44,086 nucleotides of DNA from a phage. The stretch lies in assembly GCA_021132495.1 (NCBI GenBank), contig GCA_021132495.1_4335.1; one strand, given 5' to 3'. A program made the position numbers and the translations under genes. The notes below the pieces were generated by a model. It had not been told where the DNA came from and did no database searches. It worked only from the letters and a program-made list of their open reading frames with translations. Below, one piece after another: positions 1 through 43,571 of the stretch (its first letter is position 1; every line of letters starts with the position of its first letter).

Positions 1-203
1 GTCGTCGGCACGAGCATCATGATTAGATGCCGTTGTGTATATGCCTTAGTTACCGGGATTGTGTATCTTCCTGTCTTAATCCACCAGCCATACTCACAGG
101 AATCCAGTACATTGAAAACATCACCCACATTTACGCCTATTTTCTCGAGAGTATCACCATCTTCTTCGTAGATAACGGTGTTATCTGTAATTATGATTTG
201 CAT
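1..203 (-). CDS. hypothetical protein, partial (ATG at 203..201, runs off the window start)
   Basis: Open minus-strand frame from ATG overlapping the stop of the upstream gene (TGATG) to the window edge; no stop inside the window. Confidence 0.35.
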   Translation of the reverse strand, partial: MQIIITDNTVIYEEDGDTLEKIGVNVGDVFNVLDSCEYGWWIKTGRYTIPVTKAYTQRHLIMMLVPT

Positions 204-397
204 CACTTCACCCCTTTGAATTTAAAATTGTTGCCGATGAGTGTTAAATTATCTCTGAAAGCGTAACCATGTTTCTTTCGTACAAGAACCCATACGTCTA
301 CAGCGGTACTATATTCATCCTCATTCTGGGTAACTATTACGTACTGTCCGCCGCGTTTTGTTTTAACCAACTGACCCTTCTTAAACATAACCATCAC
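203..397 (-). CDS. hypothetical protein (64 aa)
   Basis: ORF track; tightly packed with neighbouring minus-strand genes. Confidence 0.5.
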   Translation of the reverse strand: MMVMFKKGQLVKTKRGGQYVIVTQNEDEYSTAVDVWVLVRKKHGYAFRDNLTLIGNNFKFKGVK

Positions 398-406
398 TCC
401 TCTGTC

Positions 407-625
407 TTATTTAAAGTAGATAGCAAATTTCTTGTAACCCGCTGGCTCGTTACGAAGTCCTTTACCGTTAGCGAAACGTTGTACGTTAACAAAATCATTT
501 TCATCCATTCCGTCGGTGTCGAACGTAAAGAAGTTGCGCTTGTTCCCGATAATTACGCGCTCTGAGATATCGATGCCGTAAACTTCTTTGATTGCGGAAA
601 CTACGCTTGCGGTCGCTTTGTTCAT
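407..625 (-). CDS. hypothetical protein (72 aa)
   Basis: ORF track; first gene downstream of the minus-strand promoter at 660-688. Confidence 0.55.
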   Translation of the reverse strand: MNKATASVVSAIKEVYGIDISERVIIGNKRNFFTFDTDGMDENDFVNVQRFANGKGLRNEPAGYKKFAIYFK

Positions 626-659
626 TTCTAAATTCCTTATGTCTCGTTCCGATAAGTGA

Positions 660-688
660 ATAGTATCCTATTATGTTGGGGTGTGCAA
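660..688 (-). promoter_or_regulatory. sigma70-like promoter TTGCAC-N17-TACTAT carrying the palindrome AATAG-gata-CTATT
   Basis: Reverse complement of 660-688 reads TTGCAC, 17-nt spacer, TACTAT; same motif as at 23616 and 33233. Confidence 0.45.
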
Positions 689-736
689 GATAATAGTTAC
701 GTTGCCGTTGTGATTCTTTTGTTTCTTTAAAGAGTA

Positions 737-756
737 CGCAACGCAGCGGGTGGGCT
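737..756. other. GC-rich hairpin (gggtgggc-taaa-gcccaccc)
   Basis: Perfect 8-bp stem with 4-nt loop in the intergenic region; no clean U-tract. Confidence 0.3.
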
Positions 757-854
757 AAAGCCCACCCCAGCGGAGTGAAGTACTCTCTACCTTGCTTACG
801 GCAACTATAGAAACTTTTAATTATTAGTGACTTGGGTTATTTAGACGGGATTTA

Positions 855-998
855 CAATAGAGTATGGCCCTTCCGAATGCAGGCAGCGACACTACACTCA
901 GTGCTGACGCACCGCTCCGTTTCCTGCCGCACCGCGGTCGCTTGTTCATACTTCACAAGCTCAGGTGGAGCTTAGCACATTTCTTAGTAAAAGTCAAT
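855..998. repeat. copy A of a ~145-bp repeated intergenic element (second copy at 33024-33167)
   Basis: About 85% identical to 33024-33167 by hand alignment; conserved arms, variable centre; contains hairpin aagctc-aggtg-gagctt at 957-973. Confidence 0.8.
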
Positions 999-1044
999 AC
1001 CATTAGCATCTTTTGTATATCAGTAACTTTGTGTGGTGTTTTGG

Positions 1045-1073
1045 TTGCTTTTACATTCACGCTATCCTATACT
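1045..1073 (+). promoter_or_regulatory. candidate sigma70 promoter TTGCTT-N17-TATACT for the plus-strand early operon
   Basis: Hexamers with 17-nt spacing about 30 nt upstream of the RBS/ATG at 1105. Confidence 0.4.
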
Positions 1074-1104
1074 CGTTTTCACCAAACAAACAGGAGATAT
1101 AAAA

Positions 1105-1287
1105 ATGCAGCATTACATGACACAGAATGAAGTGGCTGAACGTATCGGGGTGACACGTCAAACAATTAATAACTGGTTGCGCAGCGGTAAATTCCCTGAT
1201 TGCTGTATTAAGGTTATGGGTCGCCGTTTACCAGGAACATTTGACCGTAATAAAGTTGAAGCATGGATTAAGGAGAACGTGAAATGA
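1105..1287 (+). CDS. small HTH DNA-binding protein (AlpA/MerR-like)
   Basis: RBS caggag before ATG at 1105; motif EVAERIGVTRQTINNWLRSGKFP typical of AlpA/excisionase-type HTH; ORF track start at 1033 judged too far upstream. Confidence 0.6.
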   Translation: MQHYMTQNEVAERIGVTRQTINNWLRSGKFPDCCIKVMGRRLPGTFDRNKVEAWIKENVK

Positions 1288-1496
1288 TTGGGCGTATGGG
1301 TTGTTACTTTGAAAACTGTAAAGTTAAATACCGGTTTAAGTTTGCGCCGGAAATTACTGACAGCGGATTCTATGCGGAAATATGTAAGCCTAATCATTTG
1401 TTGGAACCGACACGCATTATTAAGATGCCAATCGAGGCTTTAAGTAAGTGTCGTTTCTACGCTTCGGAGCGTGCGTGGATTGCGGGCGTTAAGTAA
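1284..1496 (+). CDS. hypothetical protein (70 aa)
   Basis: ORF track; start overlaps the upstream stop. Confidence 0.45.
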   Translation: MIGRMGCYFENCKVKYRFKFAPEITDSGFYAEICKPNHLLEPTRIIKMPIEALSKCRFYASERAWIAGVK

Positions 1497-1564
1497 AAGA
1501 AACCCCAACGCCAGAACGTCGGGGCTAAAGTACAAATCATCAAAGTAAGCATAAGGATTATACA

Positions 1565-1693
1565 ATGACAAAGTTAATAGTTCCACAGCTACGCCGCCAG
1601 AAACACGGCGCTGACTTCTTCGCACCGGTAAAGATGAACCGCGCAATGCGCCGTATGCAGGAAGCCTTAGAACGTGCGGAGAAAAAGAAATGA
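1565..1693 (+). CDS. small basic hypothetical protein (42 aa)
   Basis: Manual ORF with RBS aagga; stop overlaps the ATG of the next gene (ATGA). Confidence 0.3.
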   Translation: MTKLIVPQLRRQKHGADFFAPVKMNRAMRRMQEALERAEKKK

Positions 1694-3942
1694 ATATTGT
1701 TTTTGCAACGCTGCGCAACACATTCGATAAAAACCCTGTAGCGCGTGAGATGCCTCTCGAGCAGTTTGTGGAGTATGTCTGCGATACATCGAAGCGTTTA
1801 TCCGTGGATCCGTCGTGGTCTAAGGAAGAGTACGACGCTGCCAAGATTAAGCAGAAAGCTATTGCGCCTGTTGGGGGTCGCCGTAAAAGCGCTATCCTGG
1901 AAGACAGTGTGGTTAAGTTCGATTTTGACCATCTCAACCGTACTCAGTACCGCGACCTTACCCGCAAATTCAAGAACGCACCGTTCTTCAATATTCTGCA
2001 TACAACGGCATCGCATCAGCATGTGTGTAAAAACGGTGATTACGCCTTCCGCGTTCTGGTTCCGGCTCGCACGCCGTTTAACTCTAACGACGCGTGGATG
2101 GTCCAACGGGCTATTTGTGCAGAGTTAGAAATAGATGAAGCCTTGCGTGACCACTGCACGGAAGACGGCAACCGCCTTATCTATCTACCACATAGAGAGT
2201 CAAAGATAACGGTTACAGAAGGGCGTGTTATCCGTGCCGAGCGGTACATCAAGAAAGCCGAAGAGATGGGGTTGAGTAAACGTGAAGTTAAGACACTTGC
2301 CGCCGATGAGTATGGGCTTAACGCTGATATAGCGCATTTCTGCGAAGCCGAGCTTGGCCTTGACGCTTTATCTTCCGGGCGCGGGTACGAAGTCCCATGC
2401 CCTAACGAACATCTGCATACAGGCAAAGGCTCCACAAGCATCATGCTTGATGGTAAAGAAGTGCGCTTTGTGTGCCAGCATACAAACAACGGCGCTTGCA
2501 CCGAGCTTAACCGCCGACAGCATTTGGCCCTGCGTATGTGCGGCCTGCCAGACGAGCTTAACGTAGACAAGCAACCTATCAGTATTAACAGCATTCGTGC
2601 GGCTCTGCCTGATTTACCGGATGAAGAGATTGAAGAACTGCACCGCACAGAGAACGAGGAGCCTGTAACTTGCACGCTGGAAGACCTTGAAGAAGAGGAC
2701 GAGTTACCAGAACCGGTAAAGGCTGATTTCGTCGTTGAGGGGTACATGCCGTCGGATTGTATCTGGGATATTGTCGGGGAATCCGGCACGTACAAATCAT
2801 TCTATACGCTGGGGATGATGTACCTGAGCGCCGCCGGGTACCGGTTTGCGGGGGCTGACACCCAACGTTGCCACCATTTCTATATTGACGGCGAGGGTGG
2901 TGCAGCTACACGAACACGTATTGATGCACTCGCGGCTAAATATGGCGAGGAAGGTAAAGATTATGTACATGTCATCGATATGGGCGAAATACTCGCTACG
3001 CATGGTGATAAAAAAATTCCAGCTCTAATCCGCAGGATGCGCGAAACCGCAGGGGATGAACCTATTGGCATGGTTGCCTTCGACACCCTTAACCAGACGC
3101 TGGCCCTGACGATTGATAAGTTCGACGAGAACAGTTCATCAACGGCAATCGGTATGGGTAAAGTTATCGCCATCCTGAAAGAAGTGCGCGATGCAACTAA
3201 AGCCGCTGTCGGTGTCGTTCACCATACTCCGAAGGGCGGAAAGAAAGCCCGCGGCAGTGGAGCATTGTATGCGGGTGTCGACGTGGAACTGACAATCGAA
3301 CGCGCTACCGACCGTCAGATAAACGTATACCACTCTAAATTTAAGCACGGTCCTCAACAGAAGACGGTTGGCATGGTACTGGAGTCTGTACAGTTCCGTG
3401 AAGCACCGCCGCCGAAAGAGTACCGCGCGGTTGAGTTCCTCGGTAGCACAGAGGAATACGGCACAATAGTAAACCTCGACCTGCCTGAGCCGCACAAGGC
3501 GCTTGTATTGATGCCGTGGGGCTTCGAGCCATTCAAGACCGACGAGGAGAAAGAGAGGGGAGAAGGGTTAACTAACGAAGGTAAACAAAATGTACGTAAA
3601 ACCATAGAGAACGCCGTCAACAGTTCCGAGGCCACGATACTCGCGGCGTTTGAACTGGCGGAGGGGACCTACAACGGCAACGAGGGCATCACGGTATCCG
3701 CAGCGAATAAGCTCGCGCAGTCTGACCCCAACGCAAAGGCGTTTAACTCCAAAGAAGCCATAGAACGCGGGAAGATTAAGAAAATGGTTGAGGCTGGGTA
3801 TCTTGTTCCGGGTACTGACGAAAACAATCAGATAATCCCAGGCCGTTACAGACTGAACACCATGATAACAGATAACAAGATTCCGAAGACAATATACGAA
3901 CCGAATGAAATGCTGACAGTGACCGAGGAGGATTTGGAATGA
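1690..3942 (+). CDS. replicative primase-helicase-like protein (RecA/DnaB-type P-loop ATPase, Zn-binding region)
   Basis: 750 aa; Walker A GESGTYKS; Cys/His cluster CPNEHLH...CQHTNNGAC; acidic C-terminus TEEDLE. Confidence 0.6.
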   Translation: MNIVFATLRNTFDKNPVAREMPLEQFVEYVCDTSKRLSVDPSWSKEEYDAAKIKQKAIAPVGGRRKSAILEDSVVKFDFDHLNRTQYRDLTRKFKNAPFFNILHTTASHQHVCKNGDYAFRVLVPARTPFNSNDAWMVQRAICAELEIDEALRDHCTEDGNRLIYLPHRESKITVTEGRVIRAERYIKKAEEMGLSKREVKTLAADEYGLNADIAHFCEAELGLDALSSGRGYEVPCPNEHLHTGKGSTSIMLDGKEVRFVCQHTNNGACTELNRRQHLALRMCGLPDELNVDKQPISINSIRAALPDLPDEEIEELHRTENEEPVTCTLEDLEEEDELPEPVKADFVVEGYMPSDCIWDIVGESGTYKSFYTLGMMYLSAAGYRFAGADTQRCHHFYIDGEGGAATRTRIDALAAKYGEEGKDYVHVIDMGEILATHGDKKIPALIRRMRETAGDEPIGMVAFDTLNQTLALTIDKFDENSSSTAIGMGKVIAILKEVRDATKAAVGVVHHTPKGGKKARGSGALYAGVDVELTIERATDRQINVYHSKFKHGPQQKTVGMVLESVQFREAPPPKEYRAVEFLGSTEEYGTIVNLDLPEPHKALVLMPWGFEPFKTDEEKERGEGLTNEGKQNVRKTIENAVNSSEATILAAFELAEGTYNGNEGITVSAANKLAQSDPNAKAFNSKEAIERGKIKKMVEAGYLVPGTDENNQIIPGRYRLNTMITDNKIPKTIYEPNEMLTVTEEDLE

Positions 3943-4253
3943 ATATTTACGATTTTATAGATAACCCGTTTAAAGCAGTGAAGGCAGGATACCGCCCGTC
4001 ATACCTGACATGTGTTTCCGCTGTAAGCAACAACTGGTGGACTTTTTGTGTGTATGCAGCGGGGATTTTTGCGGAGTTTAAAGACATTTTAGACATGACG
4101 CTGGCAGAGATTATAAAGTGCCTTTTCAAATTAATTATATCGATAACTATTGTTATAAGTTTTCCTGTAAGTGCGTGGTTTCTCGCCTGGATTCAGTACC
4201 TGAACGTGCAACACACTATTAAGAATTTGGAAGAACTCGATAAGTTGCTATAA
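3939..4253 (+). CDS. membrane protein (C-terminal hydrophobic segment)
   Basis: ORF track; ATGA overlap with the upstream gene. Confidence 0.5.
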   Translation: MNIYDFIDNPFKAVKAGYRPSYLTCVSAVSNNWWTFCVYAAGIFAEFKDILDMTLAEIIKCLFKLIISITIVISFPVSAWFLAWIQYLNVQHTIKNLEELDKLL

Positions 4254-4257
4254 AAAG

Positions 4258-4277
4258 AAAGGGGCTTTAAGCCCCTT
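4258..4277. terminator. bidirectional intrinsic terminator (aaggggct-tta-agcccctt)
   Basis: Perfect hairpin between convergent genes 3939..4253 (+) and 4267..4482 (-), A/T flanks. Confidence 0.6.
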
Positions 4278-4482
4278 CACCTAACGCCAGCCACTTGGCG
4301 TCTACTTCCAGAACTTCCGCCAGTTTGAACAGCGTTGCCGGGCGGACGTCCTGAGTTACTCCAAGTGCCAGTTGGTTAATCGCGCCCTGGGAAACGCCGG
4401 TCAGGGCCGCCAAACGGCGCTGGGAGATGCCGAGTTCTTTACGGCGTTGTTCTACACGGATACCTAGTTCAGATGGTTGCAT
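4267..4482 (-). CDS. XRE-family HTH transcriptional regulator (Cro/CI-like)
   Basis: 71 aa; motif ISQRRLAALTGVSQGAINQLALG; RBS aaggag; transcribed divergently from the early operon. Confidence 0.8.
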   Translation of the reverse strand: MQPSELGIRVEQRRKELGISQRRLAALTGVSQGAINQLALGVTQDVRPATLFKLAEVLEVDAKWLALGEGA

Positions 4483-4502
4483 GTCAATTACTCCTTAGTC
4501 AG

Positions 4503-4531
4503 TTGATATGTGAATAGTACCATATTAATTA
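4503..4531 (+). promoter_or_regulatory. weaker promoter-like element TTGATA-N17-TAATTA with palindrome half-site variant (AATAG-tacc-ATATT)
   Basis: In the divergent control region between the XRE gene and the gene at 4604. Confidence 0.35.
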
Positions 4532-4546
4532 TTTTAGAAAAGCCCA

Positions 4547-4575
4547 TTGACATGTGAATAGTTCGCTATTATAGT
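4547..4575 (+). promoter_or_regulatory. sigma70 promoter TTGACA-N17-TATAGT with embedded palindrome AATAG-ttcg-CTATT
   Basis: Consensus -35 and near-consensus -10 at 17-nt spacing, about 30 nt upstream of the gene at 4604. Confidence 0.6.
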
Positions 4576-4603
4576 TAGCCCATACCAAACGAGAGGGGCA
4601 GAT

Positions 4604-4831
4604 ATGAACACAATAACGGGAGCCATAGCTAAAGGTTTTCTAGCAATTTTCGGAGAATCGCAGGAAGTGTGCACAAAACATAAATTTGTACTTTCTTGCG
4701 TAGTCGGGGACGAGTTTGATGGGTTCGATAAACTTGTTGTCTGCGACCATTGCGGGCAAGAAGCTATTCAACACCCAAACGGTAAATTTGAATTAATAGA
4801 CGATAGCCTTACAGAAGGCGACGGCGAGTAA
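4604..4831 (+). CDS. hypothetical Cys-containing protein (possible Zn ribbon)
   Basis: ORF track; motif CDHCGQ. Confidence 0.5.
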   Translation: MNTITGAIAKGFLAIFGESQEVCTKHKFVLSCVVGDEFDGFDKLVVCDHCGQEAIQHPNGKFELIDDSLTEGDGE

Positions 4832-4855
4832 CCCAAATAAACAGGAGAATAAATA

Positions 4856-5356
4856 ATGTTAGAGAAATTCTTAGTATTACTGGAACGTTTCGTAGTTGCG
4901 CATGAACTGATTGCTGCGAACAGTGCGAAACAAGTTGTTCAGGTTGCCACGCCGCTGGAAGTAGAGACGGTATCGTACACCAAAGAAGCGGTAGATGAGT
5001 GCGCTGAAGAAGCAACAAAAGAAATCCCGGTCGAGGGTGAAGACGTAGTTGACACTAAACCGGCGGAGGAAGAGAAGCCAAAACGCAAGCCGCGTAAAGC
5101 TAAAGTAGAGGAACCTGCGCCAGAACCGGAAGAAGAGAAAGAAGAAGTCGATTACAAGTCTCTGCGTGACCAGATTCAGGCCATCGACGATGCAATTAAT
5201 GAAGGTCCTAGCGATGCCGCGTGCGATGATTCTGATGAACTGCTGGAAGAGTTCACAGGTAAGAAGATGAAGATTGCCGCGATTAAAGACGAAGACCTGG
5301 TTGAGTACCTGGAACGCCTGACAGCAATCAAGAACAAGTATTTCGAAGAAGAATAA
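4856..5356 (+). CDS. acidic, Lys/Glu-rich hypothetical protein
   Basis: ORF track; low-complexity EEEKPKRKPRKAKVEEP region. Confidence 0.55.
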   Translation: MLEKFLVLLERFVVAHELIAANSAKQVVQVATPLEVETVSYTKEAVDECAEEATKEIPVEGEDVVDTKPAEEEKPKRKPRKAKVEEPAPEPEEEKEEVDYKSLRDQIQAIDDAINEGPSDAACDDSDELLEEFTGKKMKIAAIKDEDLVEYLERLTAIKNKYFEEE

Positions 5357-5363
5357 CTATCTC

Positions 5364-5385
5364 GCGGCCTTCGGGCCGCTTTAAC
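5364..5385 (+). terminator. candidate intrinsic terminator (gcggcc-ttcg-ggccgc + TTT)
   Basis: GC hairpin with short T run directly after the gene ending at 5356. Confidence 0.4.
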
Positions 5386-5399
5386 GGAGGGGCGGAAAT

Positions 5400-5672
5400 A
5401 TGATTTACCAACTCTACCGCGCCGTAGACAGGCGGGATAACACAGAGGCGTTGTGGCTGTTGCGTGCGCCGTCCGGTGCGCACCAGATGGAAGAGATGGC
5501 GTACTTAGGCAAAGTACCGCGTCCTAAAGATATAGGTCGTCACGTGTCGCGGATTAAACGCACGACATTCGCCAAGCCCGACTTTTATGTCTTCGAGTCG
5601 ATGTATGGATGGGCCTTACATTGCGACCACAAGACACGGCATTTAATTGACCAGTGGGAGAACAGAGCATGA
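5400..5672 (+). CDS. hypothetical protein (90 aa)
   Basis: ORF track; stop overlaps the next ATG. Confidence 0.45.
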   Translation: MIYQLYRAVDRRDNTEALWLLRAPSGAHQMEEMAYLGKVPRPKDIGRHVSRIKRTTFAKPDFYVFESMYGWALHCDHKTRHLIDQWENRA

Positions 5673-6910
5673 AACTAAAAGAACGAGGCGGCAATAATGA
5701 TGTACACGCCTTACTGTCACCGTCAGGCGCTAAAAAGTGGCTGTCATGCGCTGCGTCGCTGGCGTGTGAAAAAGATATCCCTAACACGTCGGGTAAAGCC
5801 GCTGTACTAGGAACCGCCATGCACACCATAGCTGAGGTCCATCTCAACGCCTATATACGCGGCACTGCGTTGCCGTTAGAGCGTGAAGTCGGCGCTTACG
5901 TACTGGATGAAGGCAAAGGTCAGATTAAGGCGCTAATCAGCCTGATGAAAGGCGCGGTACTGATTACGGCGGACATGATTGAGCAGGTGCGCAAGTACAC
6001 CGACTACTGCAAAGCGATTATAGACGTAGCGACTTACGCCAAGCTGGAAATGCGTGTCAATCTTACTGAGGTATTGCATCCGGGGTATGAAGGCGTTGAG
6101 ACGTTCGGAACCGCTGACCTCGTTGCTGTCCAGGAACTGGCAAACACCGACGAGCACATGCTCATTATCGGCGACCTGAAAACCGGGCGGCATCGCGTCG
6201 AAGCGAAAGAAAACAAGCAGCTTATGCTTTACGCTCTCGGTGTTTATCGTCGACTCAAGAGACGTTATAACATAACAACCGTTCGTCTGGTCATCTTCCA
6301 GCCTTACGCTGGGGGTGCGACAGAGTGGGACATCTCGGTTGAAGGACTGGAACTGTTCGCTAAGTTCGCACAGAAACGCGCGCTGTTAGCGCTTGATGCG
6401 TATTTCCGTGGCAAGAAGAACCTGAAAGCGTCGGACTTCAAGCCATCGGTAGATGGTTGTCAGTGGTGCCGGTTCTCTGAACAATGCGCTGCGCGTACAA
6501 AGACGGTTAATTCTGTACTGGCGGAAGAACTGGAAGACGACTTTGTGCTGGAACTGACGCCGGAGCAACTCGTAGCTGAGTATGAGAAGTTGCCGCTGTT
6601 GCGCCAGCACATCGACAAGGTTGAGAAAGCTATGGCGGCCGCGTTGCATTCAGGTAAGAAAGTTCCTGGTTACAAGTTGGTTGAAGGCCGCCCGGGCAAT
6701 CGTGCATGGAAAGACGCGGAGAAAGTAACAGAACTCTACGGCGACAAGCTGACTAAAGAAGTGCTCATGTCACCTACCGAAGCTGTTAAAGTCATACCGG
6801 AAGAAGAACTGAAAGACTTCATTACCCGTAAGCCAGGCGCACCATGTGTCGCAACGGCAGACGACAAACGTCCTGAGTGGAATCAGGTAACAGAGGAGGA
6901 TTTGGAATGA
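5669..6910 (+). CDS. PD-(D/E)XK exonuclease, Cas4/RecB-like, with C-terminal Cys cluster
   Basis: Motif GDLKTGRHRVEAKENKQLMLYAL (D..K..Q..Y); CQWCRFSEQC; start moved to ATG 5669 after RBS gggag; acidic C-terminus TEEDLE. Confidence 0.7.
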   Translation: MKLKERGGNNDVHALLSPSGAKKWLSCAASLACEKDIPNTSGKAAVLGTAMHTIAEVHLNAYIRGTALPLEREVGAYVLDEGKGQIKALISLMKGAVLITADMIEQVRKYTDYCKAIIDVATYAKLEMRVNLTEVLHPGYEGVETFGTADLVAVQELANTDEHMLIIGDLKTGRHRVEAKENKQLMLYALGVYRRLKRRYNITTVRLVIFQPYAGGATEWDISVEGLELFAKFAQKRALLALDAYFRGKKNLKASDFKPSVDGCQWCRFSEQCAARTKTVNSVLAEELEDDFVLELTPEQLVAEYEKLPLLRQHIDKVEKAMAAALHSGKKVPGYKLVEGRPGNRAWKDAEKVTELYGDKLTKEVLMSPTEAVKVIPEEELKDFITRKPGAPCVATADDKRPEWNQVTEEDLE

Positions 6911-7110
6911 TTCAAGTAAATGAAATGCCCACAGATAAAGATTTTGTGATGATATGGCGCTGGGGCGGTTATATCCATTCGGAATCGTTTACGTTCCTGA
7001 ACGGCACGATGGTGCGATACAACCATGTGGAGGATGAATTCGAACCCGTTGATATGAATGATTTCGAGAACATAGTCCGTATTGCGAAATTTTATTTGAC
7101 ACCTGAATAG
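6907..7110 (+). CDS. hypothetical protein (67 aa)
   Basis: ATG at 6907 after RBS gaggagga, overlapping the upstream stop. Confidence 0.45.
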   Translation: MIQVNEMPTDKDFVMIWRWGGYIHSESFTFLNGTMVRYNHVEDEFEPVDMNDFENIVRIAKFYLTPE

Positions 7111-7124
7111 TTAGCTATTATAGT
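7096..7124 (+). promoter_or_regulatory. sigma70 promoter TTGACA-N17-TATAGT with embedded palindrome AATAG-ttag-CTATT
   Basis: Same architecture as 4547-4575; upstream of the gene at 7184. Confidence 0.6.
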
Positions 7125-7183
7125 TCTAATCACTGACCGGGCAGCTTCCCGGAGTAAACGAAACTTAAAAGCGAGAAATTAAG

Positions 7184-7810
7184 ATGGGTATTAAACTGAA
7201 TCTGCGTAAAGTAAACACTGCTTGGGTTAACGTATTTGAACGTGAAAAAGACCGTGAAAACGATGATGGCTCAATCACTAAAGGCCAGTACAGCGCGACT
7301 ATCATCCTGCCGTCTGACCATGCTCAAATCGATGCGCTCTACGACACCGTTTACGCTGTAGTTGAAGAAGCGTTAGGCGCAGCCGCTGCCGAGAAATGGA
7401 TGAAGTCCAACTACGGTGAAGGTAAGCACATGGATAAATGCGCGATTAAAGACATTGCCGAGCGCGACAATCCGTTTGAAGACTTCCCGGAAGGCTTCTA
7501 CTTCAAAGCGAAGGCACAGAAACAGCCGCTGATTGTAACCTCTAAAAAAGGTGAGACTCAGGTAGAGCAGGACTTCAACGTAGACGGCGAACAGATTGAA
7601 GGTGAACAGGTTTACAGCGGATGCTTAGCTAACGTAAGCGTTGAAATCTGGTTCAGCCAGAAATACAAAGTCCTCGGCGTTAACCTGCTGGCGATTAAAT
7701 ACGTTGGCGAAGGCAAAGCGTTCGGCGGTTCTAAAGTCGCTGCGAGCGTCAATGACCTGGAAGACGACGAAGAAGATGAAGCACCGCGCCGCGAACGTCG
7801 CCGCCGCTAA
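7184..7810 (+). CDS. putative ssDNA-binding protein with acidic C-terminal tail
   Basis: 208 aa, directly upstream of the DNA polymerase; C-terminal DLEDDEEDE; assignment by position and composition only. Confidence 0.4.
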   Translation: MGIKLNLRKVNTAWVNVFEREKDRENDDGSITKGQYSATIILPSDHAQIDALYDTVYAVVEEALGAAAAEKWMKSNYGEGKHMDKCAIKDIAERDNPFEDFPEGFYFKAKAQKQPLIVTSKKGETQVEQDFNVDGEQIEGEQVYSGCLANVSVEIWFSQKYKVLGVNLLAIKYVGEGKAFGGSKVAASVNDLEDDEEDEAPRRERRRR

Positions 7811-7829
7811 TATCTGAATCAATTTAACT

Positions 7830-7852
7830 AAGGCCCTTCATTGGGCCTTTTT
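7830..7852 (+). terminator. intrinsic terminator (aggccc-ttcatt-gggcct + TTTTT)
   Basis: Hairpin plus T-tract right after the gene ending at 7810. Confidence 0.6.
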
Positions 7853-7869
7853 ACTAGGGGTCAAAAATA

Positions 7870-10041
7870 ATGAGTTACCTGTTCTTAGACTTTGAAACAT
7901 TCTCAGAAGCCGATTTGAAGAAAGTCGGTTCTTACGCTTACGCCGAACACCCGTCAACCGAAGTGCTTATCTGTACATATGCTTTTGACGACGAACCTGT
8001 GCGGGTATGGGATTGCACCGACGGCAGCGACATGCCGGGGGATTTACACCGCGCACTGCGCCGCCTTGTTAAGCCCAACAGCCGCATCAAGATGGTGTGG
8101 CACAACGGTGGACTTTTCGATCGCCTAATCATGAAACACTGCTGGGACTTTGATATTCCGGTAAGTAACACCATTGATACTATGATTTGGGCGTTCCGTC
8201 ACGCGCTGCCGGGTTCTCTTGATGCGCTGTGCGAAGTGCTGGGCGTGTCTGCAGACAACGCGAAAGATAAACGCGGCAAGGCTCTGATTAAGCGTTTCTC
8301 TAAACCGACGCCGAAGAACTACAAAATCCGCCGCTACACCGCAGAAACTCACCCTGACGAGTGGGCGATGTTCATCAGGTACGCCGTGAGCGACATCACT
8401 GCGATGCGTGAAGTCTTCCATAAGCTGCCGCGTTGGGGTAACTCCGAGTTCGAAGACCGTGTACTGGAACTTGACCAGTTAATCAACGACCGCGGATTTA
8501 AGGTTGACGTCGCACTGGCGGAAGCCGCGATTGAAGCCGTAGAGAAGCACAAGGCACAGTTACAGGAAGAAGCTCAACGTAAATACGGCGGCTCGCTTAC
8601 CGGTAAAGACTTCCTTCCGATTCTGCGTGAACTTGCGCCCGCGCACCGCATACACAATGCACAGAAGTCGACGCTTAACGACCTGTTGGCAGATTATGAT
8701 TTACCGGACGACGCCCGGATGATTATCGAAATGCGCCTCGGGGCCGCGTCAACAGCGTCCACGAAATATAACCCGCTGCTGTTAGGCCGCTCGTCGGACG
8801 ACCGACGCCGCGGTTGTATCCAGTACGGTGGGGCAAAGCGTACGTTACGGTTCGCGGGTAAAGGCTTCCAGCCACAGAACCTGGCGCGTGGGTACTATCA
8901 CGATGATGAACTGGATAAAGGCATTTCAGCGTTACTTAAGGGCCGGGCGCACCGCCGATTTGACGTAGCCAAGCTAACGGCATCGACCGTTCGTAGCTGC
9001 ATCATACCGGAAGCAGGGCATAAGTTTGTCGTTGCCGATTACTCTAACGTCGAAGGCCGCGGTCTTGCGTGGCTGGCGGGTGAAGACGATTTAATCGAAG
9101 TATTTGTAAACGGGGTTGATGTGTATAAGAAACTCGCATCAACGGTGTTCAATGTTGCATATGAAGCCGTAACAAAGGACCAAAGACAAATAGCCAAAGC
9201 AATGGTTCTGGGACTCGGCTACGCGGGGGGCGTCGGTGCTTTCGTCACGTTTGCTAAAAACTTAGGTCTTGATTTGAATGACATGACTAACACTTTAGAC
9301 GGTACATTCCCGGACCATATTTGGGCCGCTACCGCACGCGGATACGAATGGGCGCGTATTCAGGAAGCCAAGCGACCACCACGTCCTGGTGAAAAAGATG
9401 ACCGACCCTCATATATCCTTGATAAGAAAGTTTGGCGCACCTGTGACGCTTTAAAGCGCATGTACCGGGAAGCTAATCCTGCAATAGTCCAATTCTGGCG
9501 CGATATTGAAGACGCAGCTATGGCAGCAATCCGTAATCCGGGGAAAGAGTTCACCGCTGGCCCTCGCGGGGTTAAGTTTTCTCGCAACGTAGAAACAGAC
9601 AACAACGGCAACAAAGTCGCGGGTTGGTGGTTGCGCATGACGTTGCCGTCAGGTCGCGTTATGTCATACCCGGGCGTCGGGTTGAGCGTGTCAAAAGAGA
9701 CAGACGAAGACGGAAAAGTTTCTACTAACGTGCGCATCAAGTATCAGGGCGAAAATCAGTTAACCAGGCAGTGGGGCTTCCAGTACACCTACTCCGGTAA
9801 ACTGGTGGAAAACTGCACTCAGGCACTGTGCCGTGATTTGCTGGCTAACGCCCTGCTGAACGTAGAGGCAAACGGCTACCCTATTGTGCTTCATGTACAC
9901 GATGAGATTATCTGCGAGACACCTGATTTACCGGAATACAATGTTGCAGAGCTTGAGCGGTTGATGTGTGAATTACCGGAATGGGCGGAGGGGTTCCCTC
10001 TTGTAGCAGAAGGTAGCGAAATGTACAGATACGCCAAGTAG
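7870..10041 (+). CDS. family A DNA polymerase with 3'-5' exonuclease domain
   Basis: 723 aa; exo motif FLDFETFS; polymerase motifs DYSNVEGR (A), KAMVLGLGYAGG (B), HVHDEI (C). Confidence 0.9.
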   Translation: MSYLFLDFETFSEADLKKVGSYAYAEHPSTEVLICTYAFDDEPVRVWDCTDGSDMPGDLHRALRRLVKPNSRIKMVWHNGGLFDRLIMKHCWDFDIPVSNTIDTMIWAFRHALPGSLDALCEVLGVSADNAKDKRGKALIKRFSKPTPKNYKIRRYTAETHPDEWAMFIRYAVSDITAMREVFHKLPRWGNSEFEDRVLELDQLINDRGFKVDVALAEAAIEAVEKHKAQLQEEAQRKYGGSLTGKDFLPILRELAPAHRIHNAQKSTLNDLLADYDLPDDARMIIEMRLGAASTASTKYNPLLLGRSSDDRRRGCIQYGGAKRTLRFAGKGFQPQNLARGYYHDDELDKGISALLKGRAHRRFDVAKLTASTVRSCIIPEAGHKFVVADYSNVEGRGLAWLAGEDDLIEVFVNGVDVYKKLASTVFNVAYEAVTKDQRQIAKAMVLGLGYAGGVGAFVTFAKNLGLDLNDMTNTLDGTFPDHIWAATARGYEWARIQEAKRPPRPGEKDDRPSYILDKKVWRTCDALKRMYREANPAIVQFWRDIEDAAMAAIRNPGKEFTAGPRGVKFSRNVETDNNGNKVAGWWLRMTLPSGRVMSYPGVGLSVSKETDEDGKVSTNVRIKYQGENQLTRQWGFQYTYSGKLVENCTQALCRDLLANALLNVEANGYPIVLHVHDEIICETPDLPEYNVAELERLMCELPEWAEGFPLVAEGSEMYRYAK

Positions 10042-10073
10042 TAGATTTAGGAAATACGTTGTAGAAAATGTAA

Positions 10074-10109
10074 ATACCGATATAATGGCTATGTCGGTAT
10101 TTTTTTTTT
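10074..10109 (+). terminator. intrinsic terminator (ataccga ... tcggtat + T9)
   Basis: 7-bp stem, 13-nt loop, nine consecutive T after the polymerase gene. Confidence 0.65.
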
Positions 10110-10119
10110 GGAGTTATTA

Positions 10120-10815: not shown

Positions 10816-10936
10816 ACTGATTATCGCGGTACTGGCGGGATTTGCTGCCGGTGTCTACTGTCACGAGGGTCAATACGGCATGATGGTTGCCATATTGGGC
10901 ATGTTCATCGCAATTTATCTGTGGGTGCTGGAATGA
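10805..10936 (+). CDS. small hydrophobic peptide (43 aa)
   Basis: Manual ORF, single predicted TM segment, coupled to flanking genes; below the ORF-track length cutoff. Confidence 0.25.
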   Translation: MPSKLIIAVLAGFAAGVYCHEGQYGMMVAILGMFIAIYLWVLE

Positions 10937-11793: not shown

Positions 11794-11823
11794 CCCTACA
11801 CCAACAATATAAGGAATTGATAG

Positions 11824-12015
11824 ATGAAATACGAATATGACCGTAAACCAGCACGTGGCATCGTACCGGGCGACATGATTTTCAACGTTAAGACCCGTCG
11901 GCCTGTTGCCGTGGATACGGTGTTCGTCGAGTCGAACGGTAAACTGGTTATCGAAGACGTAACTGGCAACGTTACCGCGTTCGGGCGTAAAGAGCTTGTT
12001 CTGGTGGCAAAATGA
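11824..12015 (+). CDS. hypothetical protein (63 aa)
   Basis: ORF track; RBS aaggaa. Confidence 0.45.
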   Translation: MKYEYDRKPARGIVPGDMIFNVKTRRPVAVDTVFVESNGKLVIEDVTGNVTAFGRKELVLVAK

Positions 12016-13436
12016 GTAAGTTTCAAAGGCGCGAATATCAGAAGCTCATGACTTCGTTCATGCTACAGCATCCGCGCTGTAATATCTGGTGCGGCATGGG
12101 AGGGGGCAAAACCTCCTCAACTATGTGGGTGCTTAATCGCCTGTTTCGCAACGGGCAGCTTACAGAAGATGACCGCGTGTTAATCCTCGCCCCGTTACGT
12201 GTTGCGTCCGGTACGTGGCCCGCTGAACAAGAGAAATGGCAATTCCCTTGTCTGCGTGTCGTAGATGCAACTGGTTCGGAGAAGCGCCGCATCGCAGCGC
12301 TGGAGTCAGATGCTAACGTGGTGTGCACTAACTACGAAGTTATCGAGTGGCTAATTGACTACTACGGCAAAGACGACTGGCCTTTTACGGTTATCGTTGC
12401 CGATGAAAGCACGAAGCTTAAATCGTTCCGCAGCCGTTCGGGTGGTAGCAAGCGGGCAAAGGCGCTCAGCAAGGTTGCGTTCGGAAAGGTTAAGCGTTTC
12501 ATCAACCTGACAGGCACACCGTCACCAAACGGCCTCAAAGACTTGTGGGGTCAGAACTGGTTTATCGACGCTGGCGAGCGCCTCGGCTCTTCGTACACAG
12601 CATTCACCGACCGCTGGTTTAACTCGGTACAGAAAGGTAAATCGGCTATGGCCCGCGAGTATCATGCACGACCGGGTGCGGATAATGAGATTCATCAGAA
12701 GATGAAAGACATCAGCCTGACCATAGACCCTGCCGAGTGGTTTGGTTGTGAAGCGCCTGTTATCGTACCGGTGGAAATAGACCTGCCGAAGAAAGCGCGT
12801 CAGGCGTACATAGATATGGAGGAGAAGTTATTCGCAGAACTGGAGAGCGGGGAAGTTGAAGCGGCTAACGCTGCGGCGAAGACCTCAAAGTGCTTGCAGA
12901 TTGCATCTGGTGCCGTGTATGTGTCGGGGCCGGATGGCGAAGCGACCAAAGACTGGGAGAAAGTGCACGACACGAAACTGGATGCGCTCGAGTCGATTGT
13001 TGAGGAGTTGCAGGGTGCGCCGTTGCTGGTAGCCTATCAGTTTAAACACGAACTGGAGCGTATCCTTAAGCGATTCCCACAGGCACAGGCGTTCGCCAAA
13101 GGCGCTAGGGGGAACAAGCAGATGGAAGCGTGGAACCGTGGGGAAATCGAGATTTTATGCGTGCATCCTGCGTCAGCCGGGCATGGTTTGAATTTACAGG
13201 ACGGGGGTCATCATCTGGCGTTCATCTCGCAAGGCTGGAACCTTGAGCACTATTTGCAGGTTGTTGAGCGCATAGGCCCAGTCCGCCAGAAACAGGCGGG
13301 TCACGAGCGCCCGGTGTTCCTTTATCACATCGTTGCTAAAGACACTCTGGACGAGGTTGTCGCCGCGCGTACCGACGAGAAGAAATCGGTACAGGAAGAG
13401 TTGCTTAATTACATGAAGAGACGAGGTAAGAAATGA
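12012..13436 (+). CDS. SNF2-family helicase
   Basis: DExx box IVADEST; motif GTPSPNGLKDLW; C-terminal helicase motifs. Confidence 0.8.
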   Translation: MSKFQRREYQKLMTSFMLQHPRCNIWCGMGGGKTSSTMWVLNRLFRNGQLTEDDRVLILAPLRVASGTWPAEQEKWQFPCLRVVDATGSEKRRIAALESDANVVCTNYEVIEWLIDYYGKDDWPFTVIVADESTKLKSFRSRSGGSKRAKALSKVAFGKVKRFINLTGTPSPNGLKDLWGQNWFIDAGERLGSSYTAFTDRWFNSVQKGKSAMAREYHARPGADNEIHQKMKDISLTIDPAEWFGCEAPVIVPVEIDLPKKARQAYIDMEEKLFAELESGEVEAANAAAKTSKCLQIASGAVYVSGPDGEATKDWEKVHDTKLDALESIVEELQGAPLLVAYQFKHELERILKRFPQAQAFAKGARGNKQMEAWNRGEIEILCVHPASAGHGLNLQDGGHHLAFISQGWNLEHYLQVVERIGPVRQKQAGHERPVFLYHIVAKDTLDEVVAARTDEKKSVQEELLNYMKRRGKK

Positions 13437-13948
13437 TGGATTTCGAAGAGTTTCTACTTAAAGCTCATCTGCTGGCGCGTGGGTTTGACGCTGACCGTCT
13501 CCAGGTAGTCTTAGCCCCTGGAGTAGCTACGTTTTACCTGTGGGGGTTTGACGGCAGGCTACGAGGATACCAGCATTACAAGCCGCATGCTGAAAAGAAC
13601 TGTAAAAACCCTAAAGACGCGCGGTACTTTACCCGAACAACAAGGCCGTGTTTATGGGGACTTGAGTATTTGCCAAGTAGCGGGGTGGTATTTGTTACCG
13701 AAAGCATATTTAAAGCTGTTGCTTTGATGAATTGCGGGTTTAATGCAGTTAGCGCATTGGGGTCGAACATACCAGCTGACTTACGGCAGCAAATGTCACT
13801 TTTGCCGTATGACTGGGTGTGCGCTGGCGACAATGATAAAGCTGGATTAAAGTTCAGCAAAACATTCACCAGAGGATTTGTATCTAACGACCTTGATGAA
13901 CTTTGTGAAGAAGAAATAACGTATCTTGCGAGGAAATTTACCAGATGA
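13433..13948 (+). CDS. Toprim-domain protein (primase-like)
   Basis: VFVTESIFKA (Glu) and CAGDNDKAG (DxD) resemble Toprim catalytic motifs. Confidence 0.45.
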   Translation: MMDFEEFLLKAHLLARGFDADRLQVVLAPGVATFYLWGFDGRLRGYQHYKPHAEKNCKNPKDARYFTRTTRPCLWGLEYLPSSGVVFVTESIFKAVALMNCGFNAVSALGSNIPADLRQQMSLLPYDWVCAGDNDKAGLKFSKTFTRGFVSNDLDELCEEEITYLARKFTR

Positions 13949-14082: not shown

Positions 14083-14086
14083 AGGA

Positions 14087-14108: not shown

Positions 14109-14113
14109 TTTAT

Positions 14114-16450: not shown

Positions 16451-16462
16451 ATAGAGTCCTCT

Positions 16463-23914: not shown

Positions 23915-25045
23915 ATGGCCCGGAAGAAAATAACCGACGAACAGTTGCAGGAAGAATTGAACGCCGGTATGAAGAATGTAGATATCGCCCGTAAATACGG
24001 CATCTCAGACCGCGTAATTCGTATCCGTAAAGCGAAGCTGGCTAAGAAAGGCGTGGGCCACGGGCGCGACGTTAGCCACCTTGTGCCAGACGGCTACAAG
24101 ATTAAAGGAACGTCGTCACTTGTGGACGAGTTCGGCAACACTAAGTTGCAATGGATTAAGACTGATACCGACGCCGAACGTCAGGTTGAATTGATGAAAG
24201 CCGTAATAGAGGGCATGAAGTCAGAGATTACGCCCGTTGCGCCTGTTAAAGCGGCGCGCGCCAAACGTGACGACAAGCTACTCAATCTTTACACTGTATC
24301 TGATTTCCATCTCGGTATGCTGGCATGGGCCGATGAGAGCGGCGACGACTGGGACATGAAGATTGCAGAAGACCTGTTCTCTCGGTGGTTCGACGCGGCG
24401 TTTCAGAAAGCACCGGATGCAGGAACAGGAGTTATTAACCTGCTTGGGGACTTCGCACACTTCGATAGTCTTGATGCCGTTACCCCCGAGTCGCGCCATG
24501 TATTAAATGCGGATACTCGCTATCAGAAACTGGTACGTTACATGATTCGTATGGTCCGCCGTGTTGTTGATATGGCGCTGGTTAAGCATCACACAGTAAA
24601 ACTTTTAATCGTTCAAGGTAACCACGACCCTGTTGGCTCCGTATGGCTTGCCGAAATGTTCACGGTTTTATACTCAAACGACAGCCGAGTGATTGTTGAT
24701 ACGTCGCCGGATGTTTACAAGATGGTGCAACACGGCAAAACGACGCTGTTCTTCCATCACGGGCATAAAGCACGATTCGACGCTATCGAACCGGTTATGA
24801 TTGCCAAGTTCCGTAAAGCGTTCGGCGAGAGTGTTTACAGCTACGCCCACGTAGGCCATCTGCACCACCAGAAGATTGTAGAAAGCCGTAACATGATTGT
24901 TGAGCAACACCGCACCTTAGCGGCTAAAGACGCCTACGCCTCTCGCGGCGGATGGATGTCGGGCCGCAGTGCAAATGTAATTACTTATAGCGCCGAATAT
25001 GGCGAGGTCGCACGTTTAACTATTTCACCGGAGATGCTGGGATGA
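23915..25045 (+). CDS. calcineurin-like metallophosphoesterase with N-terminal HTH domain
   Basis: Motifs DFHLG, GDFAHFD, GNHD, HHGH, GHLHH in canonical order; N-terminal VDIARKYGISDRVIRIRKAKL. Confidence 0.7.
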   Translation: MARKKITDEQLQEELNAGMKNVDIARKYGISDRVIRIRKAKLAKKGVGHGRDVSHLVPDGYKIKGTSSLVDEFGNTKLQWIKTDTDAERQVELMKAVIEGMKSEITPVAPVKAARAKRDDKLLNLYTVSDFHLGMLAWADESGDDWDMKIAEDLFSRWFDAAFQKAPDAGTGVINLLGDFAHFDSLDAVTPESRHVLNADTRYQKLVRYMIRMVRRVVDMALVKHHTVKLLIVQGNHDPVGSVWLAEMFTVLYSNDSRVIVDTSPDVYKMVQHGKTTLFFHHGHKARFDAIEPVMIAKFRKAFGESVYSYAHVGHLHHQKIVESRNMIVEQHRTLAAKDAYASRGGWMSGRSANVITYSAEYGEVARLTISPEMLG

Positions 25046-33023: not shown

Positions 33024-33167
33024 CAATAGAGTATGGCCCTTCCGAACGCGTCAGCGTAACTACACTCAGGACTTACGTCCCGCTCCGTTACCTGCCCGCG
33101 CCGCGGTCGCTTGTTCATACTTCACAAGCTCAGGTGGAGCTTATCACATTTTTAGTGAAAAGTCAAC
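33024..33167. repeat. copy B of the ~145-bp repeated intergenic element
   Basis: Aligned by hand to 855-998; same hairpin aagctc-aggtg-gagctt at 33126-33142. Confidence 0.8.
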
Positions 33168-33386: not shown

Positions 33387-33731
33387 ATGAAATATATTAA
33401 ATTAGCAGTAGCAGGTGTTGTAGCCGTTTGTTTGAGTGGTTGCGTAAGGTCGTTGCCAGACCCAGCTTTACAGGTTTATCAGGCGGGGGATACAACGGCA
33501 ACATGTAATCAGTTACTATCGAGAATCGCCACGACAAAACAAGCTCAAGCCAACGCTACGCACCGTGTTAATAAGCAAATAGGTACTAACGTTGTACTCG
33601 GTGTTACAGGCGCATTCCTGATTGTTCCGCTGTTCTTTATGGACACGGGCGCCGGGCCTTCTATGGACGAGATGACAGCCGGTAATCGTCTGTCGCAGTT
33701 ACAACAAACATACGACGAGAAATGCAAATGA
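33387..33731 (+). CDS. lipoprotein with additional C-proximal hydrophobic segment (accessory gene)
   Basis: Signal peptide plus lipobox LSGC; opposite strand to the surrounding structural genes, with its own promoter and terminator. Confidence 0.7.
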   Translation: MKYIKLAVAGVVAVCLSGCVRSLPDPALQVYQAGDTTATCNQLLSRIATTKQAQANATHRVNKQIGTNVVLGVTGAFLIVPLFFMDTGAGPSMDEMTAGNRLSQLQQTYDEKCK

Positions 33732-38888: not shown

Positions 38889-39089
38889 TCAGCAAATATC
38901 TTCCAGTACGTCGTAATTATCACTTAGATACTGGAACGCATCACCTCTTTCTACGAACTCGTCGCCAATAGCAAATGTTCCATCAGAGACGTCTATTAGG
39001 GGGTCATCGCGCCCGATAAACTGGAATACCACCTGACCTCCATCATCAAGAAGCGTATGCAGCATAAGTAACAATAGTTTTTTGCTCAT
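38889..39089 (-). CDS. hypothetical protein (66 aa)
   Basis: ORF track; coupled chain of small genes. Confidence 0.4.
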   Translation of the reverse strand: MSKKLLLLMLHTLLDDGGQVVFQFIGRDDPLIDVSDGTFAIGDEFVERGDAFQYLSDNYDVLEDIC

Positions 39090-39322
39090 TTCCCGCTCTC
39101 CTCTTTAGCAATGCGTTGCTCTGTTTTAGTGATACCCCGGCGCGTGAATAACACAGGGCTTGTCTTAACGTGCGTCATGAGACGATTGTTATAAATTACG
39201 TGGCGCTCGCAATCAACGTCTTTGCTGTACTTCGCAATCGTCATTTCGTTGAGGCCAGTTTGTCGGCATGTCTCCGCCATCGTGCCGAATTCTTTAATCA
39301 GGTTAGGAATGCTGGTAATCAA
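39086..39322 (-). CDS. hypothetical protein (78 aa)
   Basis: ORF track. Confidence 0.4.
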   Translation of the reverse strand: MITSIPNLIKEFGTMAETCRQTGLNEMTIAKYSKDVDCERHVIYNNRLMTHVKTSPVLFTRRGITKTEQRIAKEESGK

Positions 39323-40359: not shown

Positions 40360-40518
40360 TTTCCCAAAAACCCCTTTAGTTTTCAGATTATTGCGATAGA
40401 ACTGCATCACATGTTCATTATGGAAGTTACTCATCTTCTCTACTCCGTTCTCGTTGTCGATGAGGTAAATATAATAGGGTCGTAGATAATAGTCAACTAG
40501 TCATTACAGAAAATAGAT

Positions 40519-43278: not shown

Positions 43279-43374
43279 ACCTGTTACACCACCTGTTACA
43301 CCACCTGTTACACCACCTGTTACACCACCTGTTACACCACCTGTTACACCACCTGTTACACCACCTGTTACACC
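43279..43374. repeat. tandem array of 8 perfect 12-bp direct repeats (ACCTGTTACACC), with a degenerate partial unit at 43271-43278
   Basis: Counted unit by unit; the array starts at the stop codon of gene 43368..43571 and fills the intergenic region. Confidence 0.95.
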
Positions 43375-43571
43375 GGCGATGGTGGCTCAGGTAACGGCAT
43401 CCAGTGCGTCACGTACTTACCGTAGTGATTCCAAAATGGCTTTCTCTCGTCATCAGGAACTATGTAATAATCGTGCTGCACTGCGTTATTCAACGTTTCA
43501 TACACCAGGAATTCTTTATCAGTACTGCCGTTACCCGGTAACATTTCACTACACTTAATCCACTCGCCCAT
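43368..43571 (-). CDS. DUF551-like small protein, paralogue 1
   Basis: N-terminus MGEWIKCSE and internal THWMPLPEP shared with the adjacent gene. Confidence 0.6.
   Translation of the reverse strand: MGEWIKCSEMLPGNGSTDKEFLVYETLNNAVQHDYYIVPDDERKPFWNHYGKYVTHWMPLPEPPSPV

Follow-up and report, generated by a model that had tools for sequence, protein, structure and literature searches.

The DNA analysed here is a phage stretch of 44,086 nucleotides, referred to as the window. Megablast of its bases 1-20000 matched 511 phage records, the best being Escherichia phage vB_EcoM_SHAK7858 (96% identity, 81% query coverage), and the further top matches were Kagunavirus/K1G-like siphophages as well as Salmonella Jerseyviruses at 80-90%. 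These matches indicate that the window is a circularly permuted Kagunavirus (Guernseyvirinae) genome. The phage is a lytic phage of E. coli and, like other Kagunaviruses, virulent; no integrase, cI-type repressor or RNA polymerase is listed for its annotated relatives. Ten genomes, phylogenetically related to one another, were compared: four Kagunaviruses (the window, SHAK7858, RP180 whose host is Raoultella, and LM02P1), two Jerseyviruses (Jersey and Kenya-K14) and the more distant phages St162, SE1, Otaku and Dhillonvirus jat.

The region of interest adjoins a gene at 4267..4482 (minus strand) which encodes a 71-aa XRE/434-Cro-like HTH_3 protein and is followed by a terminator hairpin (4258-4278). 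Facing away from this gene, a promoter TTGACA-N17-TATAGT (4547-4575, plus strand) is predicted to drive 4604..7110. The predicted promoter of the XRE gene itself, TTCACA-N16-TAAAAT (4531-4558, minus strand), scored 10/12 in a promoter scan and is flanked and overlapped by two copies of the inverted repeat AATAG-N4-CTATT. The copy designated O1 (4557-4570) is the perfect palindrome AATAGTTCGCTATT, which occupies the spacer of the rightward promoter from -25 to -12 and also lies over the -35 element of the leftward XRE promoter. The other copy, O2 (4513-4526), is located in the start/-10 region of the XRE promoter. The original prediction had placed two copies of the repeat in the divergent control region beside the XRE gene, and O1 and O2 do cover the XRE promoter. 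It had also read 4503-4531 as a promoter directed rightward, but the copy at 4513-4526 suits the leftward XRE promoter better. The mismatch in O2 is retained in all four Kagunaviruses, O2 reads on the minus strand like the promoter elements of class B described below (AATATGGTACTATTCACATATCAAC), and the Jersey orthologue of this region has a clean TTGCGT-N17-TACTAT on the XRE-gene strand. The copy at 4513-4526 is accordingly read as a putative operator of the XRE gene's own promoter rather than as part of a second rightward promoter.

In the record of the closest relative (OR594183.1) the XRE gene, which is 100% identical to that of the window and lies at 32743-32958, is unannotated, and a 96-nt ORF is annotated on the opposite strand where the XRE gene sits. 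The taxonomy line of the same record reads Autographiviridae/Kayfunavirus, although the phage is a Kagunavirus. The genetic neighborhood of the gene differs between groups. The XRE gene heads an operon containing helicase-primase in SE1 (4112-7002) and St162 (9779-12685), while in the Kagunaviruses and Jerseyviruses (window 1105-4253) the helicase-primase module is inverted, has an HTH_17 gene as its first gene and converges on the XRE gene.

Over-representation of the palindrome, as claimed initially, is confirmed. The exact sequence AATAGNNNNCTATT occurs eight times in the window compared with 0.03 +/- 0.17 expected from 100 dinucleotide-preserving shuffles, the copies starting at 659, 4557, 7106, 11772, 23632, 33249, 43106 and 43264. 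Allowing up to one mismatch gives 12 matches (1.26 expected), the additions being at 4513, 33158, 35358 and 40488. In an unbiased enumeration of all 5-N(0-10)-5 palindromes in the window this one ranks first with eight copies, the runner-up having three, and it is the top palindrome in each of the four Kagunaviruses and two Jerseyviruses. All eight sites listed originally are present, though the copy at 4513-4526 is imperfect, having one mismatch (AATAGTACCATATT; CATATT). The list was also incomplete, as it overlooked the perfect copy at 43264-43277 and the conserved one-mismatch copies at 33158-33171 and 40488-40501.

The palindromes are embedded in predicted sigma-70-type promoters that have spacers inside the 16-18 nt range and point to the downstream genes. 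Two promoter classes had been described, TTGAC(A/G)-N17-TATAGT and TTGC(A/G)C-N17-TACTAT, and both are as stated; they are designated here classes A and B. Besides the promoter at 4547-4575, class A includes TTGACA-N17-TATAGT at 7096-7124 (plus strand; palindrome 7106-7119), which is upstream of an SSB-like gene (7184..7810) and the DNA polymerase gene, and TTGACG-N17-TATAGT at 11762-11790 (plus strand; palindrome 11772-11785), which is upstream of 11824..13948 (helicase module). Class B consists of TTGCAC-N17-TACTAT at 660-688 (minus strand), whose -10 is overlapped by the palindrome at 659-672 and which is predicted to drive 625..407 and the leftward small genes; a promoter at 23616-23644 (plus strand; palindrome 23632-23645) predicted to drive a superinfection-immunity-like gene and the genes for an exonuclease, PNK and dNMP kinase; TTGCGC-N17-TACTAT at 33233-33261 (plus strand; palindrome 33249-33262) upstream of 33387..33731; and TTGCAC-N17-TACTAT at 43107-43135 (minus strand; palindrome 43106-43119), predicted to drive a leftward accessory/lysis cluster. 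The span given previously for this last promoter, 43097-43125, was off by 10 nt. On the strand opposite the class B promoter at 23616-23644, a TTGGTG-N16-TATTAT element (23630-23660, minus strand) overlaps the same palindrome and could supply the promoter that the tail operon (23508 down to 14114) otherwise lacks.

A third class, C, comprises two late promoters on the minus strand in which a one-mismatch palindrome lies over the -35 element. The promoter TTGACT-N17-TAAGCT (33166..33138), with its palindrome AATAGTTGACTTTT at 33158-33171, precedes the spanin/scaffold/capsid/tail-tube operon, and the feature as a whole spans 33138-33171. The promoter TTGACT-N17-TATATT (40496..40468), with ACTAGTTGACTATT at 40488-40501 (whole feature 40468-40501), precedes the NinH/terminase/portal operon. 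In the Jerseyviruses the second class C site is AATAGTTGACTAGT, in which the single mismatch is shifted to the other half-site and there is still exactly one. Two further copies fall outside these classes. The perfect palindrome at 43264-43277 is outside any recognizable promoter, being situated between a tandem repeat of eight 12-bp units and an intrinsic terminator (43229-43250), and each of the four Kagunaviruses retains it with differing central bases. The one-mismatch copy TATAGTATGCTATT (minus strand, 35358-35371) comes shortly after the GC hairpin located behind the portal gene and overlaps the annotated ATG of a head-morphogenesis gene. This copy, conserved across the four Kagunaviruses, is a doubtful member of the set and possibly the one match that chance alone would give.

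Relative to the predicted start site, the palindrome occupies -25 to -12 in class A (within the spacer), -19 to -6 in class B (over the -10) and approximately -40 to -27 in class C (over the -35). The class A promoters score 10-11/12 against the sigma-70 consensus and are the three best matches in bases 1-20000, and the class C promoter at 40496..40468 scores 10/12. Class B promoters score just 7/12 (TTGCAC/TACTAT), yet are conserved in all copies. Spacer length is 17 nt throughout classes A and B. The sole reasonably good promoter that lacks the palindrome is the putative promoter of the HTH_17/helicase-primase operon, TTGCTT-N17-TATACT at 1045-1073.

The repeat had been proposed to be a genome-wide operator, and a motif scan of related phages was suggested as a check. 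The scan supports the proposal, as orthologous sites were found in the four Kagunaviruses and two Jerseyviruses. SHAK7858, RP180 and LM02P1 each have eight exact copies at orthologous positions; Jersey has four exact and three near copies, and Kenya-K14 has five exact copies, also at orthologous positions. Alignment of 38 sites from these six genomes in two genera (16 class A and 22 class B) shows that the ten half-site columns are essentially invariant (1.95-2.0 bits), while values are lower for the -35 hexamers (1.2-1.35 bits), the central N4 (0.7-1.0 bits), the four bases separating the palindrome from the -35 (0.8 bits) and the downstream flank (about 0.8 bits). These counts are not independent events because the genomes are related; still, seven paralogous sites in two genera behave alike. 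The half-sites are thus more conserved than the -35 hexamer and equal the best-conserved -10 positions, and in class A the left half-site falls within the spacer, at positions not read by sigma-70. The palindrome is also the only element common to classes A, B and C, and its distance from the -35 differs among them: class C shows an overlap (-5 nt), class A a gap of 4 nt and class B one of 10-11 nt, except for a single class B orthologue from Jersey with 7 nt. These differing registers relative to the -35 and -10 elements imply that the palindrome is a module separate from RNA polymerase recognition. What is seen is a two-fold symmetric site with conserved half-sites, an unconstrained center and the marks of purifying selection. 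Conservation above that of the -35, sharing by three promoter classes and a sliding register are together best explained by a separate protein-binding site, and the palindrome is very probably the operator of a DNA-binding protein.

This motif has been reported before under another interpretation. For the Kagunavirus fBC-Eco01, PHIRE predicted seven "phage RNAP promoters" whose consensus is tgAATAGTa-ccTATTat-T (PMC9825357), and seven PHIRE promoters were also reported for phage Golestan (PMC7203180). The fBC-Eco01 element is AATAG-N4-CTATT at the same orthologous positions. The two articles do not remark on the dyad symmetry or on the embedding in -35/-10 pairs, and a search of the Guernseyvirinae, Jerseyvirus and Kagunavirus literature on promoters, transcriptomes and binding found only PHIRE listings and no experimental data. 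The raw motif is therefore already in print, and what appears to be new is the reading of it as an operator, its three registers and the candidate binders proposed from the sequence. There is next to no chance that the PHIRE prediction for fBC-Eco01 is right in treating the motif as a promoter used by a phage-encoded RNA polymerase. An RNA polymerase gene is not annotated in SHAK7858, Jersey, RP180, SE1 or St162, and the long ORFs of the window are all accounted for by replication or virion genes, none being an RNA polymerase. With no such enzyme encoded that interpretation is untenable, and the motif is moreover two-fold symmetric and located inside canonical -35/-10 pairs.

It is also conceivable that the palindrome has no dedicated binder, and either belongs to a promoter cassette duplicated at several places in the genome or is recognized directly by the host RNA polymerase holoenzyme. 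Sequence similarity within the classes does reach beyond the palindrome, to about 32 nt in class B and about 30 nt in class A, and the right half-site overlaps the -10 in both of these classes. The palindrome, however, is all that the three classes share, and it is found at four registers relative to the -35. Its left half-site lies in a spacer region with no known sigma-70 contact and is nevertheless better conserved than the -35 hexamer, and the perfect copy at 43264 is conserved outside any promoter. In St162 and SE1, furthermore, both half-sites have changed symmetrically, which is a prediction of a dimeric reader. An explanation that dispenses with a binder is on these grounds quite improbable. 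Two other ideas were rejected. One is an RNA hairpin, since the arms of the palindrome are just 5 bp long and the sites are upstream of the predicted starts; the other is activation from the spacer in the manner of MerR, which requires a palindrome centered in a spacer of 19-20 bp where those of classes A and B are all 17 nt.

The AATAG-N4-CTATT palindrome is absent from St162, SE1, Otaku (all Guernseyvirinae) and Dhillonvirus jat. St162 and SE1 possess instead a 16-bp palindrome, TAWTAS-N4-STAWTA, with the geometry of the AATAG form and both half-sites altered symmetrically, such that TAATAG-N4-CTATTA in Jersey corresponds to TATTAG-N4-CTAATA in St162 and SE1. TATTA-N6-TAATA has three copies in St162 (0.02 expected), and TAWTAS-N4-STAWTA has five in St162 (0.03 expected) and three in SE1 (0.04 expected); the significance of the latter pattern is overstated because it was defined after viewing St162 and SE1, although the enrichment is nevertheless large. 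All five St162 copies of TAWTAS-N4-STAWTA are in gaps between annotated genes. Related palindromes occur at intergenic or promoter positions 13003, 13664, 24246, 25359, 26798 and 33415 in St162 and 3080, 3781, 25391 and 33575 in SE1, and some of them are at promoters orthologous to those of classes B and C. The form of the motif tracks phage lineage and not host, given that the Jerseyviruses of Salmonella have the AATAG form while St162 and SE1, also Salmonella phages, have TAWTAS-N4-STAWTA. A search of SE1 for direct repeats gave nothing informative. Phage jat has three copies of TTGGT-N5-ACCAA (10009, 13093 and 43550), all of them intergenic and one in the divergent early region, and by analogy this repeat may be the corresponding operator of Dhillonvirus.

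The best candidate for the binder of the palindrome is the XRE protein, which the original prediction had also put first and for which the odds, judged from sequence and predicted structure, seem somewhat better than even. The protein matches PF01381 (HTH_3) at 49.7 bits (cutoff 23, E = 3.9e-13) as well as PHROG transcriptional repressor families, and its closest solved relatives are 434 Cro (phmmer E = 8.5e-6) and the 434 repressor. Its AF2 model (pLDDT 78.5) has five helices and aligns in Foldseek with 434 repressor and Cro structures (1pra, 2cro and 3cro) at TM 0.74-0.79 and 36-40% identity; it also matches C.AhdI, C.BclI and SinR. Homologues of the XRE protein are at least 90% identical within Kagunavirus, 48-49% identical in Jerseyvirus and about 41% identical in St162, SE1 and Otaku. 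The XRE protein and the late-operon protein NinH are the only detected HTH proteins shared with St162 and SE1, the phages with the related palindrome. The XRE protein is favored because of its 434-Cro-like fold and length, the two sites over its own promoter and its presence in St162 and SE1. Across lineages, co-variation of operator and protein gives a mixed picture: St162 and SE1, with XRE proteins of 41% identity, have the symmetric change from TAATAG to TATTAG, and the cases of Kagunavirus, Jerseyvirus and Otaku described next run the other way.

Several observations count against the XRE protein. Its recognition helix is SQGAINQL in Kagunavirus and SQSLITHL in Jerseyvirus although the operator is identical, and the Jersey helix seems nearer to TQSAISHL of SE1, whose sites differ. 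The phage 434 Cro and repressor share one operator set and are only 53% identical over the aligned domain, which makes the divergence between the Kagunavirus and Jerseyvirus helices less damaging. Serratia phage Otaku has an XRE homologue and lacks the AATAG palindrome. Wider searches did not separate the XRE protein from the HTH_17 protein. The XRE homologues in a database of 5.8 billion proteins all have one recognition helix and the single contig inspected carries HTH_17, hence these matches do not distinguish between the two proteins. Scanning IMG/VR for TGAATAG-N4-CTATTAT returned 120 stretches. Those loci with at least two palindromes and a tblastn match to XRE, HTH_17 or NinH were of the Kagunavirus type (69-100% identity); several multi-site loci had no tblastn match to any of the three, and no new lineage separating XRE from HTH_17 was recognized among the IMG/VR loci.

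Alternatively, the binder could be the 60-aa HTH_17 (excisionase/MerR-like) protein encoded at 1105..1287 (plus strand) by the first gene of the helicase-primase operon, in which case it would be made constitutively early in infection and go on to shut down every other promoter, the one of the XRE gene among them. The 443 records of HTH_17 homologues, with at least 69% identity, all come from Kagunavirus or Jerseyvirus, together the exact clade having AATAG-N4-CTATT, and the protein is absent from St162, SE1, Otaku and jat, all of which lack the AATAG motif. It is also better conserved between the two genera, at 81-82% identity versus 48-49% for the XRE protein. LM02P1, however, retains eight perfect AATAG sites even though the recognition helix of its HTH_17 protein has changed strongly from TRQTINNW to SPMTLNRW (69% identity overall), while St162 and SE1 have no HTH_17 gene and yet have a related palindrome at orthologous promoters. 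The absence of the palindrome from the putative HTH_17 promoter at 1045-1073 likewise weighs against this alternative. For small winged-helix proteins of the excisionase type, monomeric action or binding to direct repeats is more usual than recognition of compact 14-bp two-fold sites, and a sequence search of the PDB with HTH_17 gave no significant relative. HTH_17 is consequently a doubtful candidate, though one to be taken seriously.

Less probable still is that the site is read by some other factor, such as the late protein NinH (Fis-like HTH, 39086..39322), a small uncharacterized phage protein (for example one of the ribbon-helix-helix type) or a host transcription factor. All Guernseyvirinae in the comparison, St162 and SE1 included, have NinH, and most of the small ORFs have no Pfam match. 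Among approximately 30 small proteins scanned, however, no further DNA-binding domain was detected, and the lambda NinH protein binds DNA with little sequence specificity. A host factor is judged unlikely since phages of the single host genus Salmonella carry either form of the motif according to their lineage. The original prediction had also named an HTH protein at 23915..25045, but that gene encodes a metallophosphoesterase/exonuclease instead.

With the XRE protein as the preferred binder, the palindrome that recurs inside nearly every promoter most likely serves as the binding site of a small repressor made by the phage. A phage-encoded helix-turn-helix dimer would bind AATAG-N4-CTATT as a two-fold symmetric site and, being bound within the core of a sigma-70 promoter, would exclude RNA polymerase. 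All of the registers fall within the RNA polymerase footprint and the spacers are 17 nt, so occupancy of the sites should repress transcription. Perfect sites belong to the promoters that serve the replication module (4604-13948), the cassette of immunity, exonuclease and kinase genes (23686-26084), the gene at 33387 and the two leftward accessory/lysis clusters, while one-mismatch sites are found at the XRE gene's own promoter and at both late promoters. As the XRE protein accumulated it would shut off early and middle transcription in the manner of Cro, and it would regulate its own synthesis negatively, with an affinity that is graded and weaker at the XRE promoter and the late genes. One regulator could in this way coordinate early, accessory and lipoprotein transcription, as had been supposed at the outset. 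We infer the binding, the identity of the binder, the repression and its timing; for the explanation as a whole, a selected operator bound by a phage HTH dimer (most probably the XRE protein) that represses by promoter occlusion, we estimate a probability of roughly 50%.

Phage 434 offers the closest parallel to the proposed system. Operators of 434 are 14 bp long and have conserved outer bases and a variable center that is not contacted. The OR and OL sites of 434 Cro and repressor have the form ACAA-N6-TTGT. The XRE protein is a single-domain HTH_3 protein of 71 aa, the length of 434 Cro, and its presumed operator, also 14 bp and two-fold symmetric, is conserved in its outer bases and free in its center. 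The gene is likewise divergent from the main early rightward promoter, there are two unequal sites in the intergenic region, and repression would work through promoter occlusion in both cases. Unlike 434, the window phage is virulent and no cI, integrase or immunity region was seen in it; the half-site sequence differs, the sites are spread over at least ten promoters rather than clustered at OL and OR, and binding is here a prediction. In its logic only, the arrangement resembles the LexA/SOS-box regulon, where one dimeric repressor acts with graded affinity on a short palindrome found at variable registers (over the -35, spacer or -10) in many promoters, including that of the regulator itself, and where perfect and imperfect copies coexist. 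It differs from that regulon in the protein family, in being a phage system rather than a cellular one and in having no known inducing signal. The C proteins of restriction-modification systems and SinR are similar in having a small XRE fold, short inverted repeats that overlap promoters and autoregulation. C proteins, however, are confined to one or two promoters within their own operon, where they serve as activators as well as repressors; in the window, by contrast, the sites are distributed over the whole genome and each register points to repression.

Phages of the genera Kagunavirus and Jerseyvirus are widely isolated for use against E. coli and Salmonella in therapy and biocontrol, and hardly any work has addressed how their genes are regulated. 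The sole published reading of the motif, that of a phage RNA polymerase promoter, is wrong, and reading the motif as an operator would correct promoter annotation in hundreds of deposited genomes. A defined operator together with two or three named candidate repressors amounts to a testable model of early shut-off, and might supply a compact orthogonal set of repressor, operator and promoters for phage engineering. Conceptually, the proposal extends the familiar Cro-type mechanism and is not a new mechanism.

The late region has a further conserved element. Directly downstream of the class C promoter at 33166..33138 is a leader of approximately 117 nt (33024-33140, minus-strand sense), which precedes a terminator hairpin (32938-32957) that is itself upstream of the structural operon. 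SHAK7858, RP180 and LM02P1 all have this leader at 100% identity and Kenya-K14 has it at 97%, which is far above the genome average. A second copy of the leader (855-971) has diverged (76-89%), partly by compensatory base pairs such as the change from GGGAC..GUCC to GGUGC..GCAC. Rfam gave no match for the whole window or for the late leader, and a tRNA search found nothing. The leader is a candidate cis-acting late-leader or antitermination RNA. A more speculative extension, which we consider rather unlikely, is that this virulent phage family times its whole transcription program through one Cro-like repressor acting on a 14-bp operator in nearly every promoter, set at three registers and either perfect or deliberately mismatched at one position, in partnership with an ultra-conserved structured late-leader RNA and a terminator that would gate the structural operon by antitermination.

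Adjacent to the perfect palindrome at 43264-43277 that is outside any promoter, the 12-bp unit ACCTGTTACACC is repeated perfectly eight times in tandem at positions 43279-43374. The array starts in the stop codon of a DUF551 gene (43368..43571, minus strand). Relatives have only one or two copies of the unit, which makes the array a variable-number repeat abutting this orphan palindrome.
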